From an uncultured Candidatus Saccharibacteria bacterium (GTDB lineage: Bacteria; Patescibacteriota; Minisyncoccia; UBA6257; 1-14-0-10-44-23): DNA of 64,000 nt. Location of the stretch: assembly GCA_964394435.1 (NCBI GenBank), contig CAYMXN010000002.1:14196-78195 (forward strand), given 5' to 3'. Position 1 is the stretch's first letter. Each line of letters starts with the position of its first letter. The notes under the pieces are model-generated. The model searched no databases and had not been told where the DNA came from. It saw only the letters and a list, made by a program, of their open reading frames with translations. A program made the translations under genes and the position numbers. This document shows positions 2,019-50,382 of this stretch, in pieces.

Positions 2019-2091
2019 AGGACCTCCTTTTTGCAGCCAGAGAACAATTGCAAGATGACCTACGCGCCACGATAGATTAGTTGAGCCAGCC

Positions 2092-2124
2092 CTAAAATGC
2101 AAATCCCGCCAGCTGGCGGGATTT
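2092..2124 (-). terminator. intrinsic terminator after rplK (hairpin AAATCCCGCC-AGCT-GGCGGGATTT plus T tract on minus strand)
   Basis: Perfect 10-bp inverted repeat at 2101-2124, followed on the minus strand by GCATTTT. Confidence 0.6.
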
Positions 2125-2174
2125 GTTTAGTACTATTTCTTAACTCTTCGCTGGACACTCAGAGTCTTCGAAGA

Positions 2175-2600
2175 TTACTTCTCGACCTCGATACCCATGT
2201 TGCGGGCGGTACCTTCGATGATGCGCATCGCTGCTTCATCGCTGTTGGCGTTGAGATCTGCCTTTTTCTGTTCGGCGATTTTCTTAACGTCAGCCTTGGT
2301 TACCTTTCCGACTTTCGTCGTGAGCGGGTTTCCACTTCCCTTTTCGATACCGGCTGCTTTCTTTAACAGCGCAGAAGCTGGAGGAGTCTTGAGGATGAAA
2401 TCAAACGTGCGGTCTTCGTAGATAGTGATAACGGCTGGGATTGTGTCACCGGCCATCGTCTTAGTTGCCTCGTTAAATTTCTTACAAAAATCCATCAGGT
2501 TGATACCATGAGGACCGAGAGCGGTTCCGATTGGAGGCGCTGGGTTAGCAGCTGCTCCCTGAATCTGGAGCTTGACGACTGATTTTACTGGTTTAGCCAT
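2175..2600 (-). CDS. rplK: 50S ribosomal protein L11
   Basis: 141 aa. [42 protein letters not shown] matches L11 along its length. Confidence 0.95.
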
Positions 2601-12320: not shown

Positions 12321-12587
12321 ATGACTCGCGAAGAATTCCTTTCGCTCCTTTCGGAGCTGTACAAGAGCGGGAAGATCAAGGCGACCCTCGGACTCCGCAA
12401 GGGGTTCGATCGTGGGACGATTCTCCTGCGTAAGTCAGGCGACGAGGACTGCCACCTCTCTACCGGAACGGTGGTGGTGTTCATCGCCAAGTTCCTCAAC
12501 CCGGACAAGCCGAGCTGGCTCTGCATGGCCTACGTCAACGCGGGCAAGGACATCGACCTCTCCCCCGAGGACTCGACCGCGGCCTAG
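12321..12587 (+). CDS. hypothetical protein, GC-rich cassette A (88 aa)
   Basis: Promoter-like TTGACT-17-TAATAC at about 12266-12295 and GGAGG 6 nt before the ATG. The ORF is GC-rich (about 60 percent) and is followed by a hairpin terminator. Confidence 0.55.
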   Translation: MTREEFLSLLSELYKSGKIKATLGLRKGFDRGTILLRKSGDEDCHLSTGTVVVFIAKFLNPDKPSWLCMAYVNAGKDIDLSPEDSTAA

Positions 12588-13467: not shown

Positions 13468-13941
13468 CTAGCGAGTTACCGAGATCGTCTGTCCGAGCTC
13501 TGCCGATGGAGCAGAAACCGTCACGCGACCAGTCGTACCACCGGTCTGACTGACGTAGTAGCCGGAGTTGTATGAGCTCGTCGAGGTCCAAGCAGCATTC
13601 GCAGCCGATGGGTCAAACGGCATAGATGGAATATACGTGTCTACTAAACAAGGACCGATATTGTAGCCACCCGAAGACGCCATAAGACTCGAGCTAGCTG
13701 GAATTGCCGATCCGCAAGTAAAGACACCACGGTTATCAGCCATATTTTGGCCAATAGCGTTAAGGATCGCGTTCACGTTCGCAGAGCGCTGCGTGTTGCG
13801 AGCCTGGGCAAACTGACGGGCTGGGTTCAAAGCTACGATGACGACAGACGCCAAGATAGCGATGATACCGATTACTACTAATAACTCAATAAGCGTAAAA
13901 CCCTTCGACTGACTCAGGACGATGCCTTTTTGTTTGTTCAT
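13468..13941 (-). CDS. pilA: type IV pilin (major pilin paralog 1, extended leader)
   Basis: Class III signal peptide MNKQKGIVLSQSKG/FTLIELLVVIGIIAILA with Glu at +5. Divergent C-terminal domain. Confidence 0.85.
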   Translation of the reverse strand: MNKQKGIVLSQSKGFTLIELLVVIGIIAILASVVIVALNPARQFAQARNTQRSANVNAILNAIGQNMADNRGVFTCGSAIPASSSLMASSGGYNIGPCLVDTYIPSMPFDPSAANAAWTSTSSYNSGYYVSQTGGTTGRVTVSAPSAELGQTISVTR

Positions 13942-13997
13942 ATGGTAGAAATTATATCATATTCTGTTCAATTCCCTATCTAGGCTTATCCACAAAC

Positions 13998-14026
13998 AAA
14001 AAGAGCCCGTTGGGCTCTTTTTGTTT
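13998..14026 (-). terminator. intrinsic terminator after pilin gene 2
   Basis: AAAGAGCCCG-TTG-GGCTCTTTTTG. Confidence 0.6.
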
Positions 14027-14034
14027 GCTCATGA

Positions 14035-14484
14035 CTAGCGGCTAACGGAAATTACCTGGCCCAACTCTTGAGCTGGGGCGGCAACCGTTACGCGACCACT
14101 GGTCGCATCACGCAAAACTGTGTAACCAGTCTTGTATGAGCTCGTCGAGGTCCAAGCAGCATCTGCAGCTGATGGGTCAAACGGCATAGATGGAAGGTAG
14201 GTCGTGACTAAGCAAGAAGCGATGTCGTAACCACCTGACGAAGCCATCTCTGTCGCGGTTGATGGCAAAGCGCCGGCACCACACGTCCAGTTACCACGGT
14301 TATCGGCGATATTCTGACCGATAGCGTTAAGGATCGCGTTAATGTTCGCAGAGCGCTGCGTGTTGCGAGCCTGGGCAAACTGACGGGCTGGGTTCAAAGC
14401 TACGATGACGACAGACGCCAAGATAGCGATGATACCGATAACCACGAGAAGTTCGATGAGGGTGAAACCCTTTTGTTTGTTCAT
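14035..14484 (-). CDS. pilA: type IV pilin (major pilin paralog 2)
   Basis: MNKQKG/FTLIELLVVIGIIAILASVVIVALNPARQFAQARNTQRSAN. 97 nt are identical to paralog 1. Confidence 0.88.
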   Translation of the reverse strand: MNKQKGFTLIELLVVIGIIAILASVVIVALNPARQFAQARNTQRSANINAILNAIGQNIADNRGNWTCGAGALPSTATEMASSGGYDIASCLVTTYLPSMPFDPSAADAAWTSTSSYKTGYTVLRDATSGRVTVAAPAQELGQVISVSR

Positions 14485-14593
14485 TTTTTCGTTTTGAAAA
14501 TAAAACTCGACCTTTCCTATACCCTAAGAATAGCAAAGCTATGCAAAGCTCGCCATTTATCGCTGTGTATAACTACCCAAGCTATAGCCTTAT

Positions 14594-16087
14594 CTATCTC
14601 ACCTCTTCCCAGCTGATAATATCGTATTGACTCGCGGTAATTGGGAAACTCGGCGGTGGCCCGTAGAGCAAGTTCCCGTCGTACGTAATAATGCGCGTGT
14701 TATACCCCGTACCGTCCGTATACGCAAACCCGTAACGCTGATTAGTTGCGAGCATACCATAGAGCGTAATTTTGCTACGCTTATACTCTGTACCGCAGCT
14801 TGAGCTGTAGTAGTACCGGCCGATGCGACCGTTTTGAGCCACGAGCGCCGCATCAATCTCGAGATCATCATCACTCTTTAAGGCGGCGTTGATATTTCCC
14901 TGGGTCATCAAACTGATCACGTCTTGCCCGTCGTAGTTTGTATACAATAAGTCGCTGTTAATAGTGATGTTGGCGTAGGTATTAGAACTTACTGGGAAGC
15001 GGCCGGAGGCGATCGTAAGTCGCGCGGTGTTGATTTTGCCACGCACCCAAATATCATCTTCGAAAAAGAGTAGACCGTTAGCCGGGAACGCGACATTAGT
15101 CGCTACTGATGAGGTCGTGTTGATAGACCACGTTCCCCAGCCGGTCGACCCATCACTATTACAGTTATTTGGAGCATTTTTTAATCCCGTCACCTTATAC
15201 ACATCAAAGGTGTCGTTTGTTTTTAACACAATCTCATACCCCTTTGAGCCCGATGGTCCTTTGTAATATCCGCTTGATGAGGCGGCGGTTTTTATATTTG
15301 CGAGATCGGTTGTAATACCGTTAAAGTCAACGGCTGGTACGGGGAAGCTGCGACCGGCAGTAAATACATCGGTACGCGTCGGCACTGCGGCTGGCGGTAG
15401 CGGGTCAACAGTTCCCGAGTGCGTATGCACGCCAAACTCCTGTCCACCGGAGTGGTCCGGATCATCATACTTATCTTTCGCGCTCGTCACGACGTTATGC
15501 GCCACACCGTCAAAACGAATACCGCCATTACTGTGCAGCTGACCATACACATCGGTTCCCTCTCCAAAACGAATATCTGCATTAGCAGCAACCGAATAAC
15601 GCGCGAGTGATGGCAAACCCATCTTTACCTTAATCACCTTATACGCGGTTGGGTCCGAATCAACGCGACCAGTTGAAGTAATCGTGGTAATCGTAGTGCC
15701 ACTCGCTGGCGTAGTAATTTGTAGCTCAAACTGACCAAGCCGATTTCCGTCTTTGTCGTTATATACGTGTACATAAGGCTGTGTAGACGTTCCTGTTCCA
15801 TCCTTAAAATCTTGCGGGGCGTGGGCTAAGTGCCAGCGATAATACTCGATACCACTCTCGGCGATTGTAAAAGCGAGCGACTTATACTGATCACGGCTCA
15901 CGCTCTTTACATACGTATCAGACCAGAGCACAAATCCCGATATCAATAAGATTGAAATGAATCCGAATAAAAGAACCTGGATAGCCAGCTGACCTGACAT
16001 AGCTGATGGCCTTCGACTCGCAAATGTTAGTTTGAAAAAAGGAATATACATACTATTTGTATCGAAGATTACGAATCGTCGCCTCAT
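14594..16087 (-). CDS. pilus-associated large secreted protein (possible PilX/PilY-like tip or assembly factor; start may be the internal Met at 16000)
   Basis: N-terminal TM helix, then a long Thr/Ser/Gly-rich extracellular region. It sits between the minor pilins and the major pilin genes in one operon. Confidence 0.55.
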   Translation of the reverse strand: MRRRFVIFDTNSMYIPFFKLTFASRRPSAMSGQLAIQVLLFGFISILLISGFVLWSDTYVKSVSRDQYKSLAFTIAESGIEYYRWHLAHAPQDFKDGTGTSTQPYVHVYNDKDGNRLGQFELQITTPASGTTITTITSTGRVDSDPTAYKVIKVKMGLPSLARYSVAANADIRFGEGTDVYGQLHSNGGIRFDGVAHNVVTSAKDKYDDPDHSGGQEFGVHTHSGTVDPLPPAAVPTRTDVFTAGRSFPVPAVDFNGITTDLANIKTAASSSGYYKGPSGSKGYEIVLKTNDTFDVYKVTGLKNAPNNCNSDGSTGWGTWSINTTSSVATNVAFPANGLLFFEDDIWVRGKINTARLTIASGRFPVSSNTYANITINSDLLYTNYDGQDVISLMTQGNINAALKSDDDLEIDAALVAQNGRIGRYYYSSSCGTEYKRSKITLYGMLATNQRYGFAYTDGTGYNTRIITYDGNLLYGPPPSFPITASQYDIISWEEVR

Positions 16088-16685
16088 TTTCTACCCCAAC
16101 GATTGATGGCGTACTTGTTGAAGGGCTTTGATTTGCGATTAGCGATATTTTCACTGTCTTTATTTTCAGCGGATCAACCGGCGATGGAAGTGCTATAGAT
16201 TGAGTGCTGGTTGCGCTCGCGTCGTAATACGAAAATATCTGCCCACTCATCATATTATGAACCATATCTCTTACATCTTCACTGGAGCTTGGGTACGTTA
16301 CTGGGTTACCAGTTGGGCGAATCACCCCCTTCTGGAAGGTTGTACCGTTAAGAAAATATCGCACCTGATCGTACCCGCCATCACGATCAATGTCGCTGTA
16401 AAACGCAAATGAACCCGAAGCGGCGCTGATAATCGGATATGCTCCATTGTTTGATTGCGCGATCGAACGAATCTCCGGCAGCATAATCTGTAATGTTTGC
16501 TGCATCTCTTGCTGTACGATCAGACTGTTATTAAAACGAAGGCTATATTTTGTCAGATCACTTCCCAATAAACCGACCGCCATTGCGATTCCTGCAACAA
16601 TACCCATCACAATAAGAAGCTCGATAAGCGTAAAGCCACGCGTCTCGCCTTGATCCCTCCAGCTCTGTATCTGTATTTTTTTCAT
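16053..16685 (-). CDS. type IV minor pilin / pseudopilin
   Basis: Prepilin N-terminus ..ETRG/FTLIELLIVMGIVAGIA. Confidence 0.78.
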   Translation of the reverse strand: MKKIQIQSWRDQGETRGFTLIELLIVMGIVAGIAMAVGLLGSDLTKYSLRFNNSLIVQQEMQQTLQIMLPEIRSIAQSNNGAYPIISAASGSFAFYSDIDRDGGYDQVRYFLNGTTFQKGVIRPTGNPVTYPSSSEDVRDMVHNMMSGQIFSYYDASATSTQSIALPSPVDPLKIKTVKISLIANQSPSTSTPSIVGVENEATIRNLRYK

Positions 16686-16692
16686 ATATCTA

Positions 16693-18468
16693 TTATTGGA
16701 GAGTTAAGCGTTTTTCTTGCCAGCCACTTACGACCGAAACCGAACTGGTCGCAGTAGTATAGCCGGACTTACTAACCGTCATCGTATAGGTGCCGGTTGG
16801 GATATTACTAAATAATGTTTGCCCCTGTGGTACACAGCTTGATGTGAATCCGATCTGAACACTTGAGAGTGTCGGCGTATAGTTTTGATCAACCGTGTTT
16901 AAGTACGCCTTATAACGCAGATACCGATGCCCATCATGCATAGTTCCGATCGTACTTGTTGCGGTGTAATAGGTGCTGCCCGTGCCATCTGGGCCGAGGT
17001 AGTTCCATGTACTGTTGTCGGTATTTGATGCGATCTGGAATTTTAGACAGTTTGTTCCACACTGGCTTGGTTGGGTAGTCGGCGTCCAAACAAGGTCGTA
17101 CAGTACGGTGCCGGTAGTCGTGCCAAGGTCGTATGTGTTTGAGATTAAATAGCTATTCGTACTAGTTGGATATACTCCCCCATTTTGTGCGAGCTTCACA
17201 TCACCAGCCGGATTAGCGTCGGCAAGATTGCCGTCTTGTGCGTTGTAATTTCCATTAGACCAGTCGGTTTGGCTTAAAAACTTTTTACCAGTAATTTGCG
17301 TAAGGTTTGTGCCGGTCTTAGCGATAGTAACCGTCGCTCCCAAAATCGGCGTGCTTGAGGCGTCCACAACTGTCGCCATGAGCGATGTCGAAGCTTTTGG
17401 TTCAAGTAAAAACGAAAGTCCGACCGTCGTATTTGGATCGATCGTTAATGGGGCGAGCGGAATACTGCCCGCGAGATCATACACCGCAGAAGTGTTGGTA
17501 AACGTATAGGTATCCCACTCGAGTGATGAGATCGTTTTTAACCCAGAGGTATCAGTAGTAAAACTCGAGCTATATTTATTTACATTTGGGCCGGAGCCGA
17601 TTAATTTACTGCCTACCTGATTAAATGGAATTGAGGCGACTCCGTTACACTGCGCATCTTGCGTCTTCACGTTTAGCGTACTCACCCGGTCAACACCGAA
17701 ACTGATTGAAGTTATTTGCTGCGTCGCAACCGTCGCGTGCGGCTGAATTGGATTTGGGTTAGCGGCCGCACCTGGTTTATAGGTTTGCGCTGACGAGTAC
17801 CCATTTTTACTTACCGTAATCTGATACGCGGTTGTGCTAGTCGGAATATCAACTAATTGGAGCGTGCCGGAGTTGTTTGTGCTGTCTGTGATTGAGATGG
17901 CTGGTGAAGTGCTATTGTTTACAACACTCACCGAGACGTTTCCAACTGGCTGACCGTTCGCATCAAACGTGTTGATAAAGAGTGATCCATTTTTACTGGT
18001 GGACTCGAGCGTTTGCGGTGCGACCCAGGTCGTATAGGTAACTGGGGCGAACCTAAAACAAGTTGGACAGCTCACCTCGAGCTGCACCATACGATAGTCA
18101 GCTGGCGCGGTATCGTTTGGTGTCCCGCCCTGCTTGCCATCAAACGCGTCATCGATATTACGCACATACGACTTTACGACAAATGAGTTGTTTTCGTAGA
18201 GCACGGTCTTTTGAGCCAGCAACACTCCAGCTGGCGAACCGCTGACTGTACCGACTTGGTCAAACGGAACGTTGCGCAGGATTTCGATTTCTTTATTAAG
18301 CACTGATGTCGCGAGCGTACGGAGTCTCGTGCGTCCCATAATCTCTAGCACGTTGGCGAATGTAAAATAGATACCGCCAACTAAAATCAAAAAGATGCAG
18401 ATCGTGATGAGTACCTCGATCAAACTGACGCCAGATTGGCTGTGAAGTTTACTACGCGATTGAGACAT
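16693..18468 (-). CDS. large pilin-like protein with prepilin-type N-terminus (591 aa, candidate tip adhesin)
   Basis: N-terminus SGVSLIEVLITICIFLILVGG resembles a pseudopilin. The rest is a long T/S/N-rich extracellular domain. Confidence 0.7.
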   Translation of the reverse strand: MSQSRSKLHSQSGVSLIEVLITICIFLILVGGIYFTFANVLEIMGRTRLRTLATSVLNKEIEILRNVPFDQVGTVSGSPAGVLLAQKTVLYENNSFVVKSYVRNIDDAFDGKQGGTPNDTAPADYRMVQLEVSCPTCFRFAPVTYTTWVAPQTLESTSKNGSLFINTFDANGQPVGNVSVSVVNNSTSPAISITDSTNNSGTLQLVDIPTSTTAYQITVSKNGYSSAQTYKPGAAANPNPIQPHATVATQQITSISFGVDRVSTLNVKTQDAQCNGVASIPFNQVGSKLIGSGPNVNKYSSSFTTDTSGLKTISSLEWDTYTFTNTSAVYDLAGSIPLAPLTIDPNTTVGLSFLLEPKASTSLMATVVDASSTPILGATVTIAKTGTNLTQITGKKFLSQTDWSNGNYNAQDGNLADANPAGDVKLAQNGGVYPTSTNSYLISNTYDLGTTTGTVLYDLVWTPTTQPSQCGTNCLKFQIASNTDNSTWNYLGPDGTGSTYYTATSTIGTMHDGHRYLRYKAYLNTVDQNYTPTLSSVQIGFTSSCVPQGQTLFSNIPTGTYTMTVSKSGYTTATSSVSVVSGWQEKRLTLQ

Positions 18469-18482
18469 AGATAGGTACGCGC

Positions 18483-19616
18483 TTATACCTTGATGCTCTG
18501 ACTGATTTGATAGATTGGAGTGATAACCGAAAGTGCGATGAATCCGACAAGCAAACCCATAAAGAGCAACAAGGCTGGCTCGATAACGCTGCCGATATTT
18601 TTCAAAAACTCATCAACTTCAGACTGATAAAATTCGGAAAGGTACTTTAGGTTTTCAGTTAAGTTTCCTGTGTTCTCCCCCACCTCTATCATGTTAGCCA
18701 AAATAATCGGGAATAATCTCTCATTCTTTTTTAAATAGCTTGAGAAAAAATCACCGCGGCGGAGCGTCTCGCCGGCATTTTTGAGCTCGTGACGGTAGAC
18801 GAGGTTATCGAGTGTTTCGGCAGTAATATTTACCGCCTCGATAATTTTCACACCCGAGTTGAGCAACAATCCGAGCGTACGCGTCATCGTAGTTGCGTTT
18901 ACGCGCACTGACATCTTGCCGATAACAGGTAGGCGCAAAATGAAATGGTGCCACGCGTGACGATACCAGTAGTAGTGCGAAAGAATCCAGAGTACGGCGA
19001 TAAAGAGGAAAAAGCCCAGCGCGAGCCAGATACTATTAGCAGTCATAAACTTGGAACTGGCGATAAGAATCTTGGTTGTGATAGGTAAGTCTACGCGCAA
19101 ACTGGTAAAGACCGGCAAAATTTTTGGAAATACGCCGATCATAAGCGTGGCGACAATACCAATCGTCGCGAAAAAGATAACAGCTGGGTAAATAAGTGCA
19201 CCGCGAATCTTACTGCGCAACTCCTGCTTCTTTTTAAGCTCTTCGGCGAGGTAGTTAAGGTTTTCAGTTAATGTACCAGAGGTTTCACCGACGTGAACGA
19301 TGTTAATAAAGAGCTCACCAAACACGCTCTGGTACTTGCGCATACTCTCTGACAAAAACATACCGTTGGCAGTATCAGAAATAATTTGGTCAAGGATTTT
19401 CTTAAATGAGGGCGACTTGGTTTGTCTATAAATAAGACGCAAACTATCCTGCATCGTCATGCCCGAGCGAATACCAACAGCTAAGTGGCGGGCAAAAACA
19501 ACGCGCTCCTGAAGACCAACGCGCAAAAATATATTTTGAAAAATAGACTTAGCGACCGCACCCTTTGGCTGGTCGTCGTTTTCAGTTTTCTTAACTTTTT
19601 CGGGTAAGCCTAACAT
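18483..19616 (-). CDS. pilC: type IV pilus inner-membrane platform protein PilC (GspF family)
   Basis: Two GspF-type repeats, each with three TM segments. Located directly downstream of pilB. Confidence 0.9.
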   Translation of the reverse strand: MLGLPEKVKKTENDDQPKGAVAKSIFQNIFLRVGLQERVVFARHLAVGIRSGMTMQDSLRLIYRQTKSPSFKKILDQIISDTANGMFLSESMRKYQSVFGELFINIVHVGETSGTLTENLNYLAEELKKKQELRSKIRGALIYPAVIFFATIGIVATLMIGVFPKILPVFTSLRVDLPITTKILIASSKFMTANSIWLALGFFLFIAVLWILSHYYWYRHAWHHFILRLPVIGKMSVRVNATTMTRTLGLLLNSGVKIIEAVNITAETLDNLVYRHELKNAGETLRRGDFFSSYLKKNERLFPIILANMIEVGENTGNLTENLKYLSEFYQSEVDEFLKNIGSVIEPALLLFMGLLVGFIALSVITPIYQISQSIKV

Positions 19617-19657
19617 GAGAGTTCTGTATATAAGTATACACTAGAACTACTCCACTG

Positions 19658-20917
19658 TTATTCGTGAAAGACTCTTAACACTTCTTCGATAGTTGTCATC
19701 CCCTTTACCGCTTTCTCAAAGCCATCTTCCATCATCGTTTTCATTCCTTCAGCAATCGCCTGGCGACGGATTTCGTCTGCATTAGCTTTTTTCATAATAA
19801 GTTCACGAATTTTTTCTGTAATCTCAATAACCTCGTGAATACCAATACGGCCGCGGTACCCACTCCCGTTACAGCGTGCGCACCCCTGCCCTTTATAAAA
19901 CGCGTTGGTATCGCCAAGCATCTTTTCAGAAATCGAATCTTTGAGCGCCTTTAGCTCAACGTCAGTAAATACTTTTTTAACCTTACAGTCCGGGCAAATC
20001 GTGCGCACGAGACGCTGACCAATGGCGATGTTGAGTGTTGAGGCGATCAAAAATGGCTCGACGCCTAAGTCGAGTAAGCGCGGCAAGGTCGTCGGTGCAT
20101 CGTTAGTGTGAAGTGTTGAGAGCACTAAGTGACCAGTCATAGCGGCGTTGACGGCGATACTCGCTGTTTCGCCGTCACGAATCTCACCCACCATGATGAC
20201 GTTTGGGTCCTGACGCAAGATAGAACGCAGTCCGGTTGAAAATAGTAAGCCGGTTTTGACGTTGACCTGAATCTGGTCGACGCCCGGGAGTGAGTATTCG
20301 ATTGGGTCTTCGATGGTAACAATCGAGACGTCCGGCGTATTAATTTTTTTCAAAATCATGTATAGGGTCGTCGTCTTACCCGAACCAGTTGGACCGGTCG
20401 CGAGGATTAATCCATATGGCTTTTTCATCGCACGCGCGATGCGTCCAAGATTGAGCTCGGAAAATCCAAGCTTTTCCAAACTAAACTCATCACTCGAGTG
20501 GTCGGCGAGCAAACGCATGACGCAGTTTTCGCCGAAATAGGTCGGGGTAATAGAAACACGTACGTCGAGGTTAGCTCCGTCTTTTAAGACAATACGCAGA
20601 CGGCCGTCTTGAGCGGCTTGGTGTTCGTCGGTACGTAGTCCAGAGAGCACTTTGATACGCGTAATGATTTCCGAGTGGAGCTCTTTCGGAAACTTATAAA
20701 TATCGTGGAGTACACCGTCAACGCGAAAGCGCAGACGTAAGGCGTGCTCTTCTGGATCCATATGGATATCTGAAGCGCGCATTAAAAACGCCTGCTGAAT
20801 AATAACATCAACGATTTTGATGATTGAGCGAAACGCGTCAGCCTTTTTTACCTCCTTATCAAGCGCTTCTACGTCGGCTTGGAGTTGGGGTTCTTTTTCT
20901 GTTTCGGTTTCCGCCAT
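19658..20917 (-). CDS. pilB: type IV pilus assembly ATPase PilB (GspE family)
   Basis: Walker A GPTGSGKTT, Asp box, Walker B and a tetracysteine motif (CPDCKVK...CARCNGSGYRGR). Start set at MAETETE with TATAAT just upstream. Confidence 0.92.
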   Translation of the reverse strand: MAETETEKEPQLQADVEALDKEVKKADAFRSIIKIVDVIIQQAFLMRASDIHMDPEEHALRLRFRVDGVLHDIYKFPKELHSEIITRIKVLSGLRTDEHQAAQDGRLRIVLKDGANLDVRVSITPTYFGENCVMRLLADHSSDEFSLEKLGFSELNLGRIARAMKKPYGLILATGPTGSGKTTTLYMILKKINTPDVSIVTIEDPIEYSLPGVDQIQVNVKTGLLFSTGLRSILRQDPNVIMVGEIRDGETASIAVNAAMTGHLVLSTLHTNDAPTTLPRLLDLGVEPFLIASTLNIAIGQRLVRTICPDCKVKKVFTDVELKALKDSISEKMLGDTNAFYKGQGCARCNGSGYRGRIGIHEVIEITEKIRELIMKKANADEIRRQAIAEGMKTMMEDGFEKAVKGMTTIEEVLRVFHE

Positions 20918-21125
20918 AGCGATATATCTATTATAGTACAGTTTCATTTCGCTCACGAACAAAACCGGCGCATATTGCGAAAATATGTCAAAATCTATAG
21001 AATAACGGCACGCTTCAATATCGGTAGCCAAGTGCCCCTTCTCTGCACTTCGTGACGATATTGTGGGCTCGCCAAACCGAAAGTCTTAATCAAAAGGACT
21101 GTAGGTGCTGAGCGCAGTGAAGCAT

Positions 21126-21171: not shown

Positions 21172-21420
21172 ATGTGGCACGTCTATCTTCTAAAAAGCCA
21201 GAAACAAAAATGGTATTATGTCGGGAGTACAAACCGACTCGAAGAAAGACTTAGCGAGCATAATCAGGGTCGAGTGCGATCGACTAAGAGCTATCGTCCA
21301 CTAGATATTGCCTACGCTAAGGAGTTCGGAAGCGAGAAAGAAGCGAGAAGTTATGAGAGAATGATAAAAGACAGGCGCATACTAAAGGAAGCGATTGTAC
21401 GAGAAATTGAAGGAAGGTAA
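21172..21420 (+). CDS. GIY-YIG nuclease family protein (YhbQ/Slx1-like, 82 aa)
   Basis: WHVYLLKS...KWYYVGSTNRLEERLSEHNQG is the GIY-YIG signature. The gene fills the gap between the tRNA fragment and the intact tRNA exactly. Confidence 0.8.
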   Translation: MWHVYLLKSQKQKWYYVGSTNRLEERLSEHNQGRVRSTKSYRPLDIAYAKEFGSEKEARSYERMIKDRRILKEAIVREIEGR

Positions 21421-21424
21421 ATAT

Positions 21425-21495
21425 TGCCAGATCGTCTAATGGTAGGACAGCGGACTCTGAATCCGCGAATCTTGGTTCGATTCCAGGTCTGGCAG
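21425..21495 (+). tRNA. tRNA-Gln (anticodon CUG)
   Basis: Manual cloverleaf: acceptor TGCCAGA/TCTGGCA, D arm GTCT..GGAC, anticodon stem GCGGA/TCCGC with loop CTCTGAA, T arm CTTGG-TTCGATT-CCAGG. U1-A72 as in bacterial tRNA-Gln. Confidence 0.85.
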
Positions 21496-21551
21496 CAAAG
21501 TTAAAATAGGTTCGGAGTCCGAGGAGCTTAACAGATTTAAATAATTAAATT

Positions 21552-21953
21552 ATGAATAATTTTGAGCTGGAAGGATGGGACGAAATAAATCAAAACGGAG
21601 GTACTATTGGAACGGGTATAAATAAATCTATTCACAAGCTCACCGTTGCAATATTCAACTCTGGCTCAAAAACCTCTACTCATGTAGGTTATCTTAAGGA
21701 TAAGGTTGAACAGCTAAATAAGAATCTGGAAGAATCGAGTAAATCCTCCGATAGGAATTCCAGAGCGATGAAGTATTTAACCGGAGCTTTGGTTTTTCTG
21801 GGTATCGTGCAAGTTCTAGTAGCTTGGTTAAGCTATTCTGCCGATCGATCAATAATTGGAACTAAGAAAAATTGCTATAAAACTGCACTTCAAACTTCTG
21901 ATATAGAATTAAACTATAGAAGCTGCCTTCATAGCAATGGACTTTCAGAATAA
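21552..21953 (+). CDS. hypothetical single-TM protein in AT-rich island
   Basis: 133 aa with one predicted TM helix (YLTGALVFLGIVQVLVAWLSY). About 33 percent GC. Confidence 0.4.
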   Translation: MNNFELEGWDEINQNGGTIGTGINKSIHKLTVAIFNSGSKTSTHVGYLKDKVEQLNKNLEESSKSSDRNSRAMKYLTGALVFLGIVQVLVAWLSYSADRSIIGTKKNCYKTALQTSDIELNYRSCLHSNGLSE

Positions 21954-21977
21954 ATATGCTTCAAATAGTGTAATTCT

Positions 21978-23009
21978 ATGGAAGAAAGAACAAGTCCTAA
22001 GCAACTTAAGTCAGATACAAGACAGTGGAATTCTGGCAGGGTTCATTTTGCAGTCATTGGTTGGCCAGGAAAACCTGAGGATAATTATATTGTTTTTCAA
22101 AAAAATTTCTTTGGAAAAACGAAAAACCAAGACCAAAAATTCAATTTACGTTTTAGAGATTGGCAAAATCTCAAGAAGCTTATTGATGGCGAGTTGACCC
22201 CTATTACTGAGTGGGAAAAGACAATTTCTGTCGTTGACAAAGAAAGTCTCGAAAAACTCATAAATGATGATCCTGATATTTTTTCAAAAGTCCTAGCAAG
22301 TCCGAATATATTAAAGTTGAGCGATTCCAGCTTCGAATCTCTTGATCGAATTGCAGTAAAAATATACGAAGTTAAGGCAGAAAAAATTGATCTAATCTTA
22401 AAAAAGATAGCTGAGACGCCATCAGCAGATCTCGAAAAGTTTAGTACCCTATTGAATGATTTGAGACTAAACCAGATTTCAATGATGACCACTTTGGTTT
22501 ACCAGAAATTAAAAATAATTGATTTGCTTGAAAAAGTTATCATATCTCCTAGAAGTAAAGAAAAGGATGTACATCAGATTTTTGAAAAACACCCATGGCT
22601 TTTGGGGAGAGCTTTCGAAATCGTTTCAAGTGATAAGGCGCTTATAAATTATCTAGAAACAAATTTACAAGAAGACCCAGAAACCCGCGTAAGACCTGAT
22701 ATAATCGCCAGCACTATTCCTTACACAAATGATGTCGTAATTATTGAACTTAAAAAACCAGGGATTAAACTTAAGGCAAAACATATTGGACAAGTCCTGG
22801 AGTATAAGGCATTAGTACAAAGACATAAGCCAAATGTAAAGAATATAAATTGTTTTGTTTTTGGTTACGAGAAAGATACCACTTTTACTTTTTCAAAAGA
22901 TGCAACAATAAAGACTTTCTCAGAATTAGTATCAGAGCTTAGGCATGAATACAAAGAATATCAAAAAGTATTAGATGTAGGAAAAGATCTTGAAGTAGAA
23001 AATTTATGA
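21978..23009 (+). CDS. PD-(D/E)xK nuclease-domain protein, Shedu(DUF4263)/NERD-like candidate anti-phage defense protein
   Basis: C-terminal region KEKDVHQIFEKHPWLLG...RPDIIAS...NDVVIIELKKP...QVLEYK shows the D...E-x-K restriction-endonuclease-fold motif and the hPWLlG element I associate with DUF4263. The N-terminal 200 aa were not recognised. Confidence 0.55.
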   Translation: MEERTSPKQLKSDTRQWNSGRVHFAVIGWPGKPEDNYIVFQKNFFGKTKNQDQKFNLRFRDWQNLKKLIDGELTPITEWEKTISVVDKESLEKLINDDPDIFSKVLASPNILKLSDSSFESLDRIAVKIYEVKAEKIDLILKKIAETPSADLEKFSTLLNDLRLNQISMMTTLVYQKLKIIDLLEKVIISPRSKEKDVHQIFEKHPWLLGRAFEIVSSDKALINYLETNLQEDPETRVRPDIIASTIPYTNDVVIIELKKPGIKLKAKHIGQVLEYKALVQRHKPNVKNINCFVFGYEKDTTFTFSKDATIKTFSELVSELRHEYKEYQKVLDVGKDLEVENL

Positions 23010-24575: not shown

Positions 24576-24989
24576 ATGAGGTGTACTTTGAAGCGTTCCT
24601 TTCTGCTCGCACTCGCGCTGATCGTGATGGCACTCGGCTTCCTGAACTCCCCGCTGGTCGAGCCGGCCAACGCTGGCGGCTTCACCATGCTGCTGCCGAA
24701 CACCCCGGTGTTCTCGATTGGGGTCTGGAGTCTGGAGACCGACGACTTCAAGTCGGTGGTCGTCCCTGCGGACCGGGCCGCCGACCTCTGCGCGGCGCTG
24801 GGCATCTCCATAAGCCAGGGCACGTTTAGCACGGCGGCCCAGGTCGTCACACTCAACCCGAACGCCACGGCGATCGTGACGTGCGATTGTCAGCCCACCC
24901 AGGGCCTATCCACGTACTGGGGAGTCCAGAGTACGTGCTGGCAGGACCAGTACGCACAGTTCTCTTTCGAGCAGGTCAACACACGCTGA
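24576..24989 (+). CDS. secreted Cys-containing small protein, GC-rich cassette B
   Basis: Signal peptide (..LLALALIVMALGFLNSPLVEPANA), mature domain with CDC...C...C. GC is about 62 percent. Terminator follows. The start could instead be the TTG at 24588. Confidence 0.5.
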   Translation: MRCTLKRSFLLALALIVMALGFLNSPLVEPANAGGFTMLLPNTPVFSIGVWSLETDDFKSVVVPADRAADLCAALGISISQGTFSTAAQVVTLNPNATAIVTCDCQPTQGLSTYWGVQSTCWQDQYAQFSFEQVNTR

Positions 24990-35878: not shown

Positions 35879-36562
35879 CTACCCCTTGCCCCCTGGAGGA
35901 GGCGCGAAGGCGGCGATCGGAGTCCAGCCGAGCAACTTGTCACCTGGCTTGGACCCCTCCGGACCCTGGATCATCGGGAGCGGATCGGTCCGCTGCCCGA
36001 AGTTGAGCTCGAAGCCCGTCGCCAGACGCGAGATGAGCACGTACTCCTTCTCCTGCCCCACCGGAGCCGTGGGCAGGACCGTCGCCCCGTTGAGGACCCA
36101 GGCGCGGCGCTTGTCGCACGTGCCGACGTTGCCGCAGACCTTGACCCAGCCCGCCTCGCCGACCTGCAGCGTCGCCACCGTGAGGTGGTAGAACTGCGAG
36201 GGAACGACGGCCGGGACCGGCTTGGACGACTCGCTGGGCGACTTCATCGCCGGCACCGTCGGGCAGTCCATGTCCGACTGCGGGAGACCCGGTACGGTCG
36301 GAGCCATGAGCCACTCGTTGAAGCCCGAGGCCTCCTTGGAGTTCGGCGAGGACGTGAACGTCTTCACCGCCTGCTTCGTCTCCTTGTCGTCGCCGCTGTT
36401 CCAGCAGAGGCCGACGATGATGACGATGATCAGGACGATGATACCCCCGATCGCCACGAGGCGACCGCGGGTGATCCCCCCGGGCACCTCGTGCGGGACG
36501 GGGTCGCCGCCGGACGAAGCCGGGGCGTGGGGGTCGTGGGAATCGTGGGAATCGGCGGACAC
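35879..36562 (-). CDS. single-pass membrane protein, very GC-rich cassette E (about 66 percent GC)
   Basis: His/Asp-rich cytoplasmic N-terminus, TM helix LVAIGGIIVLIIVIIVGLCW, Pro/Cys-containing ectodomain. AGGAGG 5 nt before a GTG. Strong promoter immediately upstream. Confidence 0.55.
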   Translation of the reverse strand: MSADSHDSHDPHAPASSGGDPVPHEVPGGITRGRLVAIGGIIVLIIVIIVGLCWNSGDDKETKQAVKTFTSSPNSKEASGFNEWLMAPTVPGLPQSDMDCPTVPAMKSPSESSKPVPAVVPSQFYHLTVATLQVGEAGWVKVCGNVGTCDKRRAWVLNGATVLPTAPVGQEKEYVLISRLATGFELNFGQRTDPLPMIQGPEGSKPGDKLLGWTPIAAFAPPPGGKG

Positions 36563-36600
36563 AGACACCTCCTTATTGGACTAGAGACATAGCCGTTTTG

Positions 36601-36640: not shown

Positions 36641-36744
36641 GTTCGGGCAAAGGCGGCAATTCGAACATACCCCCTTCGACTTCCTATCTCAGGCCATTCG
36701 GCTCTGAAAGCTTCAGGCTCGATGAGGTCATTTCCCTTTGGAAA

Positions 36745-36980
36745 ATGAAATAAAAAGCAGCGCCGAAGGAAGGTCCTTCTGCGCTGCGGAGAGAAAGCCG
36801 GGTGACTCTTTGGTTTGCTTTGGCCTGGGAAATGGGGATGTGGAGGTCGAGGTCCGCAGGGACGCCCGACGAAAGCCTTAGCTCACCGCTAAGCCACCCG
36901 GAAAAGCGGTATCGCCGAGGGTTTGGAGACTACCCTCTTTGATGTACTCAAAGAGTACCCTTCCTCCGAAGGCTCGTCAA
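36745..36980 (-). other. structured noncoding region downstream of ftsX (about 235 nt) ending in an intrinsic terminator
   Basis: Multiple nested inverted repeats (CCGGGTG...CACCCGG, GCTTAGC..GCTAAG, GTCCCTGCGGAC). Terminal hairpin CAGCGC-N17-GCGCTG plus CTTTTTATTT. Confidence 0.4.
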
Positions 36981-37889
36981 CTAGACTTTGAGGTAGCGCC
37001 TGATAGCGATCCAACTACTGATAATACCGAGACCACAGCCGGCTAAGATGAGATATCCAAACAATTGAAATAGATTTGAGTAGAAATACACTTCGATATT
37101 AACCTCGGGTATAACTGCAGCAAAATATGGCGAGGCGAAGTTGATTGCCGGAGCGGCGATAAGCATCGTAAAGACGGCTCCAAATACTCCGTACAAGATT
37201 CCGTTTACAATATATGGCCCTTTGATAAAGGTGTTAGACCCTCCGACTAAACGCATAATCGCGATCTCTTCTCGATTGCTGTAAATCGCCAGACGAATCG
37301 TGTTGAATGCGACAAGACAAGCGGCGATGGCGATAAATACAGCGAGAACAAATCCAACTTTATTGACCGTATCAATAATCTTGTTGAGGCGCTCGATCGC
37401 TTTTTGGTTTTGGGCGTAGGTAATTTTCTCGACAATTGATTTAAAGTTGTCGTTTTCTAAATATGAGGCGATGATTGGATAATCCTTTGTGTCGTTCGCT
37501 TTAATGTTTACCGAGGCACGCAACGGATTAGCACTTAACTCCTGAAGCGCCTGACTGATGGTCGGGTCTTCTTTGTGGTTCTCTTTAAAAATTTCAAGCG
37601 CTTTGTCGCGCGAGATATACTCGACGCTCTTTACCTCCGGGAGTTGCTCGAGTGCTTTTTCGATTTTCAAAATATCATCTTCTGGAGCGGCAACTTTGAA
37701 ATACACGGCGATGTCTATTTTGTCGCGTAATGAGTCGGTAGCGGTCTTAGTTAACACATCAAACATCGTAAGTCCGTTGAATAAGAGTAGCGCCAATACC
37801 ATAACCACGATGGTCGCGATTGAAAGTGAGCTGTTACGCCAAAAGCTCTGGAAGCCGTATTTAATCATTCGTAATAGTCCGGTAAGCAT
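36981..37889 (-). CDS. ftsX: cell division permease FtsX
   Basis: 4-TM FtsX topology with a large first periplasmic loop. Follows ftsE. Confidence 0.88.
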   Translation of the reverse strand: MLTGLLRMIKYGFQSFWRNSSLSIATIVVMVLALLLFNGLTMFDVLTKTATDSLRDKIDIAVYFKVAAPEDDILKIEKALEQLPEVKSVEYISRDKALEIFKENHKEDPTISQALQELSANPLRASVNIKANDTKDYPIIASYLENDNFKSIVEKITYAQNQKAIERLNKIIDTVNKVGFVLAVFIAIAACLVAFNTIRLAIYSNREEIAIMRLVGGSNTFIKGPYIVNGILYGVFGAVFTMLIAAPAINFASPYFAAVIPEVNIEVYFYSNLFQLFGYLILAGCGLGIISSWIAIRRYLKV

Positions 37890-47564: not shown

Positions 47565-48806
47565 TTATTTGATGTGGTCGATGAGATGGTCGGCTTTCAC
47601 TATCTTCTCCTCACCTGTCCGGCGGTGGCGTACTTCGTACCCACCTTTCTCGAGCGTCTTCTCGCTTACTACTATACGATATGGAATACCAAGCAAATCG
47701 GCGTCATTGAGTTTTTGGCCGGCGGTTGCGTCGCGATCGTCAAACAATACTTCGACATTTTCGTTACGAAGTTTTTTATACAACTCTTCAGCCGCTTTTT
47801 CTGCCTCTCCGGTTTTACTCTTAAGCGAGATCAAGTGTGCGCGAAATGGCGCGACTGATTCTGGCCAGACAATTCCCTTTTCGTCTGAAAGCACTTCGAC
47901 GATCGTACCCATCACGCGCCCCAAACCGATACCATAACAACCCATTACCACCGGCTGAAGCTCACCCTTTTCATCTTTATAGGTAACTTTAAACGGCTCG
48001 GTAAACTTAGTCTTGAGCTCAAAGATGTTTCCCACCTCAATCGCCTTTTCTTCTCGTAGGCCGGTCGCGCCACATTGCGGACAGTTCGGTTGATCGGCTT
48101 TGATTTCTTTGTTCACTGCGATCGCGCACTGGTCGCAAAGATAGATGATATCCTCACCAGCCGAGGTAAGTGTCTGAAACTCGTGGCTATACTTACTAAA
48201 ACTTCCACCTGAAGCGTAGGTTACATAGGTGCGCTCACCAATACCAACGCGCTTAAATATTTCGCGATACGCCTGCTTCATAATCTCGTAGTACATCTTT
48301 AAATCTTTCTCATCGCGATGGAACGAATAGAAGTCCTTCATAATAAACTCACGGCCGCGCAAAATACCGCTCTTCGCGCGCAGCTCCATACGGAACTTGT
48401 TTTGGAATTGATAGACGCCAAACGGCAGGTCTTTATAGGAAGAGATAAACTGCTTAGCGAGCGGAACTACGATTTCTTCGTGGGTTGGACCGAGAGCGTT
48501 TTCACGACCCGAAGCGTCTTTGACTTTGTACAAGTCATCCATCGTCGTCCAGCGACCGGTCGTCTCCCAGTTTTCTTTTGGATGGAGCGACGGCATCAGT
48601 ACCTCTTGTCCGCCAACCTTATTCATCTCCTCGCGGATAATCGTTTCGATTTTTCGCAGCACGCGAAGACCAAGCGGTAAGTAGGTGTATACCCCGGCTT
48701 GAAGCTTATCGATATAGCCAGCACGAATTAAGAGCTGGGCGTTTTTAGCCACCTCTTCAGACGGATTGTCTTTTTGAGTGCGGGTAAATAGTTCGGTTTG
48801 TCTCAT
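47565..48806 (-). CDS. proS: prolyl-tRNA synthetase (short form lacking the INS editing domain)
   Basis: Class II motifs 1-3 (e.g. FRMELRAKSGILRGREFIMKDFYSF) and C-terminal anticodon-binding domain. 413 aa. Confidence 0.88.
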   Translation of the reverse strand: MRQTELFTRTQKDNPSEEVAKNAQLLIRAGYIDKLQAGVYTYLPLGLRVLRKIETIIREEMNKVGGQEVLMPSLHPKENWETTGRWTTMDDLYKVKDASGRENALGPTHEEIVVPLAKQFISSYKDLPFGVYQFQNKFRMELRAKSGILRGREFIMKDFYSFHRDEKDLKMYYEIMKQAYREIFKRVGIGERTYVTYASGGSFSKYSHEFQTLTSAGEDIIYLCDQCAIAVNKEIKADQPNCPQCGATGLREEKAIEVGNIFELKTKFTEPFKVTYKDEKGELQPVVMGCYGIGLGRVMGTIVEVLSDEKGIVWPESVAPFRAHLISLKSKTGEAEKAAEELYKKLRNENVEVLFDDRDATAGQKLNDADLLGIPYRIVVSEKTLEKGGYEVRHRRTGEEKIVKADHLIDHIK

Positions 48807-48910
48807 ACGCCCATTATACAGAAATAATCGTCCTATACAAAAATTGACACCCCACTCGGCTTTTGATAAAAATCAGCTAGCACCTTTCATCCTCTTTTGG
48901 AGAATGCGTT

Positions 48911-49291
48911 ATGCGCAAGCACCAGGCTGGTTATACGGGAACTGAAGTAATCATCACTTTCGCCCTCATCGCCCTTTTAGCGTCGGCGGTGGCCGGGCTT
49001 CTAAGCGTGACTCGAAGATACAAAGAGCAGACTGAACGAACGACTGCTCTCGCAGGCTGGCTCACTGCCAACAACCCCGAGATGAACTTCTCGGCGAAGG
49101 TTGGTGATACGTGCGGATGCGATCACGGCAAGACCGTCCCCTATCAGCTCGAGCTGATGGACAAGGTCTCGGACAAGTTCGCTCCCGGACTCATCTTCGT
49201 CGTCGAGCAACCGAAAGAACGCCCACTCCAGAAGGGGCAGCTCGTCACGCTCCACCTAGTCGACGGCAAGATCGAAGTCGAAAGCCCTTGA
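48911..49291 (+). CDS. prepilin-like small protein, GC-rich cassette D
   Basis: N-terminus AGYTGTEVIITFALIALLASAVAGLL has Gly then Glu at +5 and a hydrophobic helix, a class III signal-like pattern. TTGACA-17-TAAAAAT promoter, GGAG RBS, about 58 percent GC. Terminator follows. Confidence 0.5.
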   Translation: MRKHQAGYTGTEVIITFALIALLASAVAGLLSVTRRYKEQTERTTALAGWLTANNPEMNFSAKVGDTCGCDHGKTVPYQLELMDKVSDKFAPGLIFVVEQPKERPLQKGQLVTLHLVDGKIEVESP

Positions 49292-49298
49292 TTCTCAA

Positions 49299-49330
49299 AG
49301 CCCCACCTCCCTGCGGAGGTCGGGCTTTTT
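49299..49330 (+). terminator. intrinsic terminator of cassette D
   Basis: CCCCACCTCC-CTGC-GGAGGTCGGG followed by CTTTTTAATTTTT. Confidence 0.55.
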
Positions 49331-49335
49331 AATTT

Positions 49336-50382
49336 TTAAAATAATCGAATGATATCCCGACCCGTAATTGCAATCATCAGAATAAAGAGTAGCCCAAACC
49401 CAACGAGGTTAAAGACAAGCTCTTTTTTCTGACCAATTGGCGAACCCTTTATTTTTTCAATGATGATAAATAAGAAACGACCGCCGTCTAAAGCAGGAAA
49501 TGGAATCGCGTTAAGAATTGCGAGGTTGAGCGAGATCATGCCAAGTAGCTGCATCAGATAAACGAGACCGAGGCCGCCAAGCTGATTGGCTACGCCCCAG
49601 ATACCAATTGGCCCAACTACGCCCTCAAGTAGTTCCGCGTGTACAAATAGCCGACTCACCATCGAGCCGAATGTCTGAAGAATCTGACCCATCACTTCGA
49701 GCGAGGTCGTCAGCCCTTTCCAAAGAGCGGTGAAAAATGGAAGCTTTTCAAATCCGGCTTCAGAAATAATAACGCCGGTTGCGCCCTGCCCTTTTATATT
49801 TTCTAAGCGCGGCGTAACTTCAACATTTATTTTCTCTCCATTGCGGGTTATCTCAATCGGAAATACTTGGCCACGATGAGCCTCGGTTGCCTGAATAAAA
49901 TCTGAAGCGGTTTTAAACTGTAATACTTGGTCGCCTGGAAGGATACCGGCGAGTGCGGCCGGAGAGTCCGGCATCACATTGGTAATCACTACCGCTTGCG
50001 GTGCGCCCACCATAAATACTGCCGAGAGTAAGAGCCAGCCGGCGAAGAAGTTAATCGCCACCCCGGCAAATACAATCGTTAAACGGCGCCAGGCGCTTTG
50101 GTGCGCAAAGCTACGCGAAGGTTCGATGATCTCCCCGGTCTGTGCGGCTCGGCGCTCCATCTGCTCCTTGCTTTCACCATAGATTTTTACAAATCCGCCA
50201 AACGGGATCCAGTTAAAGCTGTACTCGGTCTCCCCTTTTTTAATCGCAAAGATGCGCGGCGGAAACCCAAAGCCAAACTCCTCGACTTTCAGCCCCGCTT
50301 GCTTAGCGGCGATAAAGTGACCAGCCTCGTGGACGATAATAAGCAGTGAGATTCCAATAACAATGATTAATCCAAATAACAT
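49336..50382 (-). CDS. rseP: RIP metalloprotease RseP (site-2 protease, M50) with PDZ domain
   Basis: HEAGHFIAAK zinc motif in TM1, PDZ insert, C-terminal LDGG motif (PALDGGRF). Confidence 0.88.
   Translation of the reverse strand: MLFGLIIVIGISLLIIVHEAGHFIAAKQAGLKVEEFGFGFPPRIFAIKKGETEYSFNWIPFGGFVKIYGESKEQMERRAAQTGEIIEPSRSFAHQSAWRRLTIVFAGVAINFFAGWLLLSAVFMVGAPQAVVITNVMPDSPAALAGILPGDQVLQFKTASDFIQATEAHRGQVFPIEITRNGEKINVEVTPRLENIKGQGATGVIISEAGFEKLPFFTALWKGLTTSLEVMGQILQTFGSMVSRLFVHAELLEGVVGPIGIWGVANQLGGLGLVYLMQLLGMISLNLAILNAIPFPALDGGRFLFIIIEKIKGSPIGQKKELVFNLVGFGLLFILMIAITGRDIIRLF

Follow-up and report, generated by a model that had tools for sequence, protein, structure and literature searches.

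We analyzed a stretch of DNA of 64,000 nucleotides (the window) from a genome of the candidate phyla radiation (Patescibacteria), in which a single small gene, here called cassette D, lies between proS and rseP in the orientation opposite to both. The two flanking genes belong to a co-directional run that comprises the genes for ribosome-recycling factor (RRF), RseP, ProS, MreB, MreC, MreD and PBP2. The locus contains the following features:

47565-48806, minus strand: prolyl-tRNA synthetase gene (proS), flanking cassette D
48844-48873, plus strand: sigma-70-type promoter (promoter scan)
48899-48902, plus strand: GGAG ribosome-binding site, 8 nt 5' of the ATG (read from the sequence)
48911-49291, plus strand: coding sequence of cassette D, 126 aa, stop codon included (ORF list)
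49297-49333, plus strand: intrinsic terminator, a 13-pair hairpin with a one-base bulge, then TTTTT (terminator scan)
49336-50382, minus strand: M50 site-2 protease gene (rseP), flanking cassette D and convergent with it

Searches of 5.8 billion clustered proteins, together with HMMER searches of 1.84 billion representatives, returned a single relative of the cassette D protein (P0002, 126 aa, 70% identical). This relative occupies the same slot between proS and rseP in a metagenome-assembled genome (MAG; hereafter the sibling) whose deposited name is uncultured Candidatus Saccharibacteria bacterium, and the neighbour genes of the two genomes share 84-98% identity. No homolog beyond the sibling was found in phage records, plasmid records, viral contigs or metagenome contigs. 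An earlier note on this DNA had pointed to high-GC bacteria as the place to look for homologs; none turned up there or elsewhere beyond the sibling. Some matches to repeat proteins were spurious and were discarded. The identical protein is encoded on seven contigs, some of them from the three sequencing runs SRR13076513, SRR13076514 and SRR14271359, so cassette D is not an assembly artefact. Between the window and the sibling, the Nei-Gojobori method gives dS of about 1.0 and omega (dN/dS) of 0.19, and thus the protein is under purifying selection, although it evolves faster than the neighbour genes. Every conservation argument made for this protein is a comparison of this one pair (two sequences in total). 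Cassette D is a real gene under purifying selection.

The coding sequence starts with MRKHQAGYTGTEVIITFALIALLASAVAGLLSVTRRYKEQ. Its promoter consists of a -35 element TTGACA (48844-48849), a 17-nt spacer and a -10 element TAAAAAT (48867-48873). The earlier note had described this TTGACA-17-TAAAAAT promoter, and it is present, but about 36 nt upstream of the position at which that note began the cassette. All 13 of the 13 bases in the promoter elements are the same in the sibling (L001), as are 10 of the 17 spacer bases, with the length of the spacer kept. The ribosome-binding site of the sibling ortholog is weaker (GGGAA). At the other end of the gene, the terminator that the earlier note had reported is found as a hairpin (49297-49328) followed by a U-tract, with a folding energy of -21.6 kcal/mol (z = -4.7 relative to shuffles). 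It is the same in the sibling at 31 of 32 positions, the sole change falling on the bulge, and it directly adjoins the stop codon (49336) of rseP, the convergent gene. Cassette D is independently transcribed and restricted to one narrow lineage.

On the minus strand, an extended -10 element (TGTATAAT) lies at 48807-48820 and ends 6 nt 5' of the proS ATG; the stretch around it is identical to the sibling at 35 of 37 positions. The proS gene may be expressed as a leaderless mRNA from a promoter that stands back-to-back with that of cassette D.

The composition of cassette D is atypical. The coding sequence has a GC content of 57.0% (the earlier note gave about 58%, and the anomaly that it described is present) and a GC3 of 68.5%, whereas the whole window has a GC content of 48.0%. 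Relative to the 57 confident genes of the window, these values correspond to z-scores of +3.3 for GC and +4.0 for GC3. The GC3 of the sibling copy is 0.74. We also inspected the junction in relatives whose RseP is 60-63% identical and in which the gene order around rseP and proS is conserved. In one of them (L010) the junction is empty, proS following rseP directly after a 30-bp gap. In two others (L009 and L011) it holds an unrelated, co-directional gene of 101 aa that has left no trace in the window. Because the junction is empty or otherwise filled in these relatives, cassette D is an insertion into a variable slot, and it was acquired before the split from the sibling (dS of about 1). The gene thus combines two marks of horizontal acquisition, atypical composition and absence from the slot in relatives, whereas homologs in a plausible donor lineage, a third mark, were not found. 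The earlier note took the gene to be foreign. Composition and patchy distribution make a foreign origin a reasonable inference from the sequence, but it stays unproven because no donor homolog occurs in any collection searched, and the source of the gene is untraceable.

Three further GC-rich orphan genes occur in the window, at 12321-12587 (plus strand), 24576-24989 (plus strand) and 35879-36568 (minus strand). They have GC contents of 0.61-0.68 and GC3 values of 0.84-0.91, compared with a typical GC3 of 0.51. Each is followed by a strong hairpin with a T-tract and preceded by AT-rich, promoter-like sequence (judged by eye). One carries a Sec-like signal and one a membrane helix. None has a match in Pfam, NCBIfam or PHROGs; they are unrelated to one another and to cassette D and share no common flanks, and the 229-aa orphan has no match in phage or plasmid records. 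Similar genes are seen in relatives. For instance, the sibling carries a 74-aa ORF (L001, 4166-4390, minus strand; GC 0.62) between mreB and proS that is absent from the window, and L010 carries a 126-aa ORF (2026-2406, minus strand; GC 0.68, GC3 0.91) upstream of rseP. Insertions of single GC-rich genes appear to have been gained and lost repeatedly in this clade.

Two other regions of the window are of separate interest. A 291-nt non-coding gap (36690-36980, minus strand) lies downstream of a 302-aa gene (36981-37889, ftsX-like by eye). It folds at -120.5 kcal/mol (z = -5.4; none of 200 shuffles was as stable) and contains a hairpin with a U-tract about 80 nt from its 3' end. It matches no Rfam family and was not recognized as a tmRNA by ARAGORN, and we consider it a candidate structured non-coding RNA. 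Within the region 21172-23009, a tRNA gene (21425-21495) is followed by an island of 31-36% GC (21552-23009), which encodes a 343-aa protein with a weak, below-cut-off match to the C-terminal domain of Shedu SduA; this is probably an integrated defence island.

The relatives of RseP and of the minor pilin described below that carry names are mostly Paceibacterota, Parcubacteria-type (Harrisonbacteria, Wolfebacteria, Liptonbacteria) or Patescibacteria. The sibling-level copy of RseP is 92% identical and the next-closest only 63% identical. The lineage is isolated, and its class-level placement is uncertain despite the Candidatus Saccharibacteria label of the sibling MAG.

The window also encodes a type IV pilus cluster (13468-21031), about 28 kb from cassette D, in agreement with the earlier statement that the gene lies far from the pilus operon. 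The cluster includes the following assembly genes:

18483-19616: T2SSF platform protein
19658-21031: T2SSE ATPase

It also includes four N_methyl pilin-like genes, three of which have GFTLIE N-termini and the fourth GVSLIE. One of the resident pilins, a minor pilin of 210 aa, scores slightly below the Pfam N_methyl cut-off (19.7 bits). No prepilin peptidase (Peptidase_A24) is present among the 31 window proteins scanned. Two major-type pilin genes of the cluster are tandem paralogs (13468-13941 and 14035-14484, minus strand) whose mature N-termini are near-identical over about 50 residues; the leader of one is longer by eight residues (MNKQKGIVLSQSKG, followed by FTLIE). In a close relative (L012), an ORF at 2217-2738, after the 485-aa gene of the pilus cluster, opens with the leader and first residues of the major pilin (MNKQKGFTLIEL) and continues as an unrelated, non-hydrophobic sequence. 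It is a rearranged or fused pilin 5' end.

The protein encoded by cassette D can be divided into the following parts:

48911-48931, plus strand: putative class III leader MRKHQAG, residues 1-7, with Gly at -1
48932-49012, plus strand: putative mature N-terminus, residues 8-34, with Y+1, T+2, E+5 and a hydrophobic helix
49013-49072, plus strand: the helix continued, at first charged and then amphipathic, residues 35-54, RRYKEQTERTTALAGWLTAN (AlphaFold2)
49073-49288, plus strand: small five-stranded beta-barrel head, residues 55-126 (AlphaFold2 model)
49112-49126, plus strand: C-G-C-D-H motif, residues 68-72, invariant in both orthologs

The class III signals of type IV pilin-like proteins have a hydrophilic leader of 6-26 residues with Gly at -1, and a Glu at +5 that interrupts a stretch of about 21 mainly hydrophobic residues (PMC4471445). 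The cassette D protein shows both elements. Its leader has seven residues, is basic and ends in Gly7; its Glu at +5 (E12) is invariant, and the stretch YTGTEVIITFALIALLASAVA is hydrophobic, with a best 19-residue Kyte-Doolittle hydropathy of 2.67. Residues 5-29 (QAGYTGTEVIITFALIALLASAVAG) match the sequence quoted in the earlier note exactly. The window protein reads MRKHQAG followed by YTGTE and the sibling MRKQQAG followed by FTRAE, so that six of the seven leader residues are the same, Gly7 is invariant, and G-1, F/Y+1, T+2 and E+5 are conserved in both orthologs. Loss of the processing site in homologs would have spoken against the prepilin-type signal; the only homolog keeps all four positions. 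The hydrophobic stretch of the sibling is shorter and carries R+3, N+6 and K+22. Over residues 1-37 the two proteins share 14 identities, nine of them in residues 1-14 (hypergeometric p = 0.013), whereas the hydrophobic residues beside the motif are only about 22% identical.

In order to gauge how specific this pattern is, we applied a PilFind-style rule (basic leader, G/A, the +1 residue, S/T, x, x, E and 14 uncharged hydrophobic residues) to all six-frame ORFs of at least 50 aa. Five of the 299 ORFs match, namely the four operon pilins and cassette D, and none of the reversed-sequence decoys does. In an hhalign comparison with the resident minor-pilin family, the Gly, F/Y, Thr and Glu fall in register (E = 9e-4, probability 23%). 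Furthermore, the leader MRKQQAG of the sibling, which is one residue off that of the window protein, also begins a canonical minor pilin (MRKQQAGFTLIE) that is encoded in an unrelated operon from a metagenome (L007). Judged from these comparisons, the putative class III motif is specific and conserved, and the Gly/Glu+5/hydrophobic pattern that the earlier note had recognized is real.

Not all of the N-terminal evidence points the same way. The match to Pfam N_methyl (PF07963) scores 12.4 bits (E = 0.12), below the cut-off of 21.2, and the sibling protein has no match to this model at E <= 0.01. The NCBIfam model XpsI (NF047828) aligns with residues 5-45 over its positions 1-41 (E = 7e-4), at 19.6 bits compared with a cut-off of 150; the sibling protein does not match it. 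Positions +3, +4 and +6 are polar or small (G-T in the window protein, R-A and N in the sibling) and do not read L-I-x-L. The positive charge is about +2 on each side of the hydrophobic helix, so the positive-inside rule does not settle the topology. The protein could instead be a plain signal-anchored bitopic membrane protein that is never cut by a prepilin peptidase, in which G-[YF]-T-x-x-E would be a coincidence or a relic. Both the sub-threshold family scores and the equal flanking charges fit such a protein. Against it, the motif is rare, matches no decoy and otherwise occurs only in true pilins; a Glu at the start of a membrane helix is kept, together with the Gly, the aromatic residue and the Thr, amid diverging neighbours (p = 0.013); and the register is the same as in the resident pilins.

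Alternatively, the protein could be secreted through the Sec pathway and lose a class I signal peptide by cleavage, for example after A26-V27-A28. This would account for the n-region (MRK), the hydrophobic h-region and the A-V-A preceding G at residues 26-29 of the window protein. However, the sibling reads A-A-T-C-V-K, and class I signals do not usually have a conserved Glu where the hydrophobic region begins (PMC4471445). Because the A-x-A site is not conserved, we consider Sec-type cleavage very improbable. A sortase anchor was also rejected. The Pfam model Gram_pos_anchor (PF00746) scores 19.2 bits against a cut-off of 20, but the match is N-terminal, lacks the LP, is absent from the sibling and spans only the TG-E, the hydrophobic stretch and the RR.

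We then compared selection along the protein with that along a resident pilin. In cassette D, conservation is fair over the leader and motif (omega 0.40). Over the hydrophobic helix (codons 15-37) omega is 0.81, with hydrophobicity kept at an identity of about 22%, and over the C-terminal 89 residues (codons 38-126) it is 0.08. As a control we used the resident 210-aa minor pilin (16053-16685) and its closest relative on L012 (dS 1.19). Here the leader has an omega of 1.0, the first 30 residues of the mature protein 0.03 and the rest 0.04. The selection pattern of cassette D is thus the reverse of that seen in this control. Subunits in pilus filaments contact one another mainly through the N-terminal half of the pilin helix (PMC4471445), and in cassette D this putative interface is not conserved in the manner of the resident minor pilin (omega 0.81 compared with 0.03). 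Given the known role of the pilin N-terminal helix, its near-neutral evolution here argues that the helix serves as an anchor or stalk and not in subunit packing. A class III signal that survives in front of a drifting helix hints at anchoring rather than filament assembly. The two proteins also differ in their distribution: the resident minor-pilin family has at least 187 relatives across Patescibacteria and the cassette D protein only one. The content of Gly, Ala, Ser and Thr (GAST) is 29% in the cassette D protein, compared with 41% in the two major-type pilins.

Structure prediction adds a head domain to this picture. AlphaFold2 modelled the full-length protein with low confidence (pLDDT 66), as one helix of 45 residues (residues 10-54) and five strands behind it. 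A model of residues 41-126 alone reaches a pLDDT of 88.3 and a pTM of 0.75, with a 13-residue helix (positions 2-14 of the truncated model, pLDDT 87-92) and five strands. The head is predicted to be a compact OB-like barrel that is mildly acidic (pI of about 5.2). The CGCDH motif lies between the first two predicted strands in the secondary structure of the model and may have a metal-binding or redox role. Foldseek searches against the PDB returned weak OB-like matches (S28e, S17, NTR domains, EutN and DUF2500; best E = 0.02), and neither PDB search had a pilin among its 50 listed matches. Pilins have a lollipop shape, in which the C-terminal half of an N-terminal helix of about 50 residues packs on a head formed by a four-stranded beta-meander (PMC4471445). 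The modelled long helix and beta head are compatible with a pilin-like lollipop, on a head without a recognizable relative.

These results bear on the proposal that cassette D encodes a bona fide minor pilin from a GC-rich donor that the resident peptidase processes and that becomes part of the filament or tip of the type IV pilus. The class III motif with a helix-plus-beta-domain shape, the presence of a pilus system in the same genome and the GC3 outlier status (z = +4) are what one would expect of such a protein, and there are known examples of orphan or modular minor pilins among Saccharibacteria and monoderm bacteria (PMC11623550, PMC8179133). However, the putative assembly interface, in contrast to that of the resident minor pilin, is unconstrained; the head does not diversify but is conserved and has no pilin-like structural match; the GAST content is low; and the collections searched contain no donor homolog. 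We therefore regard a foreign minor pilin built into the pilus as unlikely. Incorporation into the type IV pilus, which the earlier note had suggested, is doubtful given the omega of the helix, the non-pilin head and the GAST content.

Several of the same observations are what one would expect of the uncut bitopic membrane protein introduced above, in which the helix would be only a transmembrane anchor and the conserved barrel could face either side of the membrane. Its transmembrane segment would be free to drift near-neutrally with only hydrophobicity retained, as observed. The head resembles small OB-like barrels, including that of the membrane-anchored DUF2500 protein (3q6c), rather than any pilin among the listed matches; the GAST content of 29% is like that of a cytoplasmic protein; and there is no linkage to pilus genes. 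Set against the rarity and conservation of the motif, these points leave an uncut anchor as a possible explanation, though one on the unlikely side, and the same holds for a barrel that faces either side of the membrane.

We give about an even chance to the reading in which cassette D encodes a lineage-specific, bitopic, pilin-like envelope protein that has a class III signal under selection, is a probable substrate of a prepilin peptidase and uses its helix mainly to anchor the barrel head at the cell surface. The basic seven-residue leader ending in Gly, the Y/F-T-x-x-E and the hydrophobic helix would together act as a class III signal peptide, and the protein would insert in the membrane with its N-terminus inside. 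The prepilin peptidase of the resident type IV pilus would then probably cleave it behind Gly7. The long helix would be mainly a membrane anchor or stalk, and the helix-plus-barrel head with its CGCDH motif would be displayed outside the cell. Such a protein would more likely be a rare accessory subunit, or a stray surface protein of pilin-like or pseudopilin-like type, than one of the regular building blocks of the filament. The cleavage, the membrane topology, the display outside the cell and a link of any kind to the pilus are steps that we infer.

Several known proteins resemble this one in part. Nanosynbacter lyticus TM7x carries PilJ and PilK, orphan pilins encoded away from the pilus loci with an intracellular-like GAST content (PMC11623550). 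Like cassette D, they are stand-alone pilin-like genes off the pilus loci of a Patescibacteria genome, with near-intracellular GAST and C-terminal parts that are poorly conserved outside the lineage. No sequence relationship to them surfaced in the database searches with cassette D, the likeness being one of description, and cassette D differs in its degenerate motif (YTGTE / FTRAE), OB-like barrel head and unconstrained helix. The minor pseudopilin GspI/XpsI of type II secretion has a similar size (about 125-130 aa) and an N-terminal match, but the scores for this family and for N_methyl are far under the curated cut-offs and the remainder of the cassette D protein has no match. The resident minor pilin (16053-16685) shares the Gly-ended leader, the F/Y-T-x-x-E and the hydrophobic helix in register, but its leader is free and its mature residues 1-30 are fixed, the reverse of cassette D. 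DUF2500 (PDB 3q6c) likewise combines an N-terminal membrane helix with a small beta-barrel. However, the Foldseek match is not significant (E = 0.19, TM-score 0.43-0.59), the two proteins share no sequence similarity, and the function of DUF2500 is not known.

The bindosome of Sulfolobus, made up of sugar-binding proteins with class III signal peptides, offers a precedent for such a signal serving to anchor and display a non-filament domain at the cell surface (PMC4471445). The bindosome is archaeal, has large solute-binding domains and uses a dedicated Bas system, and no bacterial counterpart has been shown. A bolder interpretation is that cassette D encodes a bacterial, non-filament substrate of the prepilin peptidase, in which a class III signal, serving purely as a bindosome-like anchor, would display a new OB-like barrel with an exposed metal-binding or redox (CXC) CGCDH motif on the surface of an ultrasmall episymbiont, the cassette possibly having come from high-GC hosts. 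We assign this a low probability. At the same low level, the interpretation would extend to the repeated gain in this lineage of GC-rich single-gene cassettes, each with its own promoter and terminator, in the gaps between housekeeping genes.

Taken alone, cassette D is a modest finding, an orphan without traceable relatives beyond the sibling. Saccharibacteria were already known to carry orphan pilin-like genes (PMC11623550), and what is new here is the head domain. Type IV pili are central to the attachment of Patescibacteria and Saccharibacteria to host bacteria and to their life on them, and stray pilin-like genes belong to this repertoire. If the protein is processed and displayed, such cells would have one more surface module, a new small-barrel head domain that carries a CGCDH motif, and the protein would be a case of a class III signal that survives while the helix behind it drifts. 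In this lineage, several unrelated orphan cassettes of foreign composition lie scattered between core genes; cassette D is one of them, and the pattern bears on gene gain in very small genomes.
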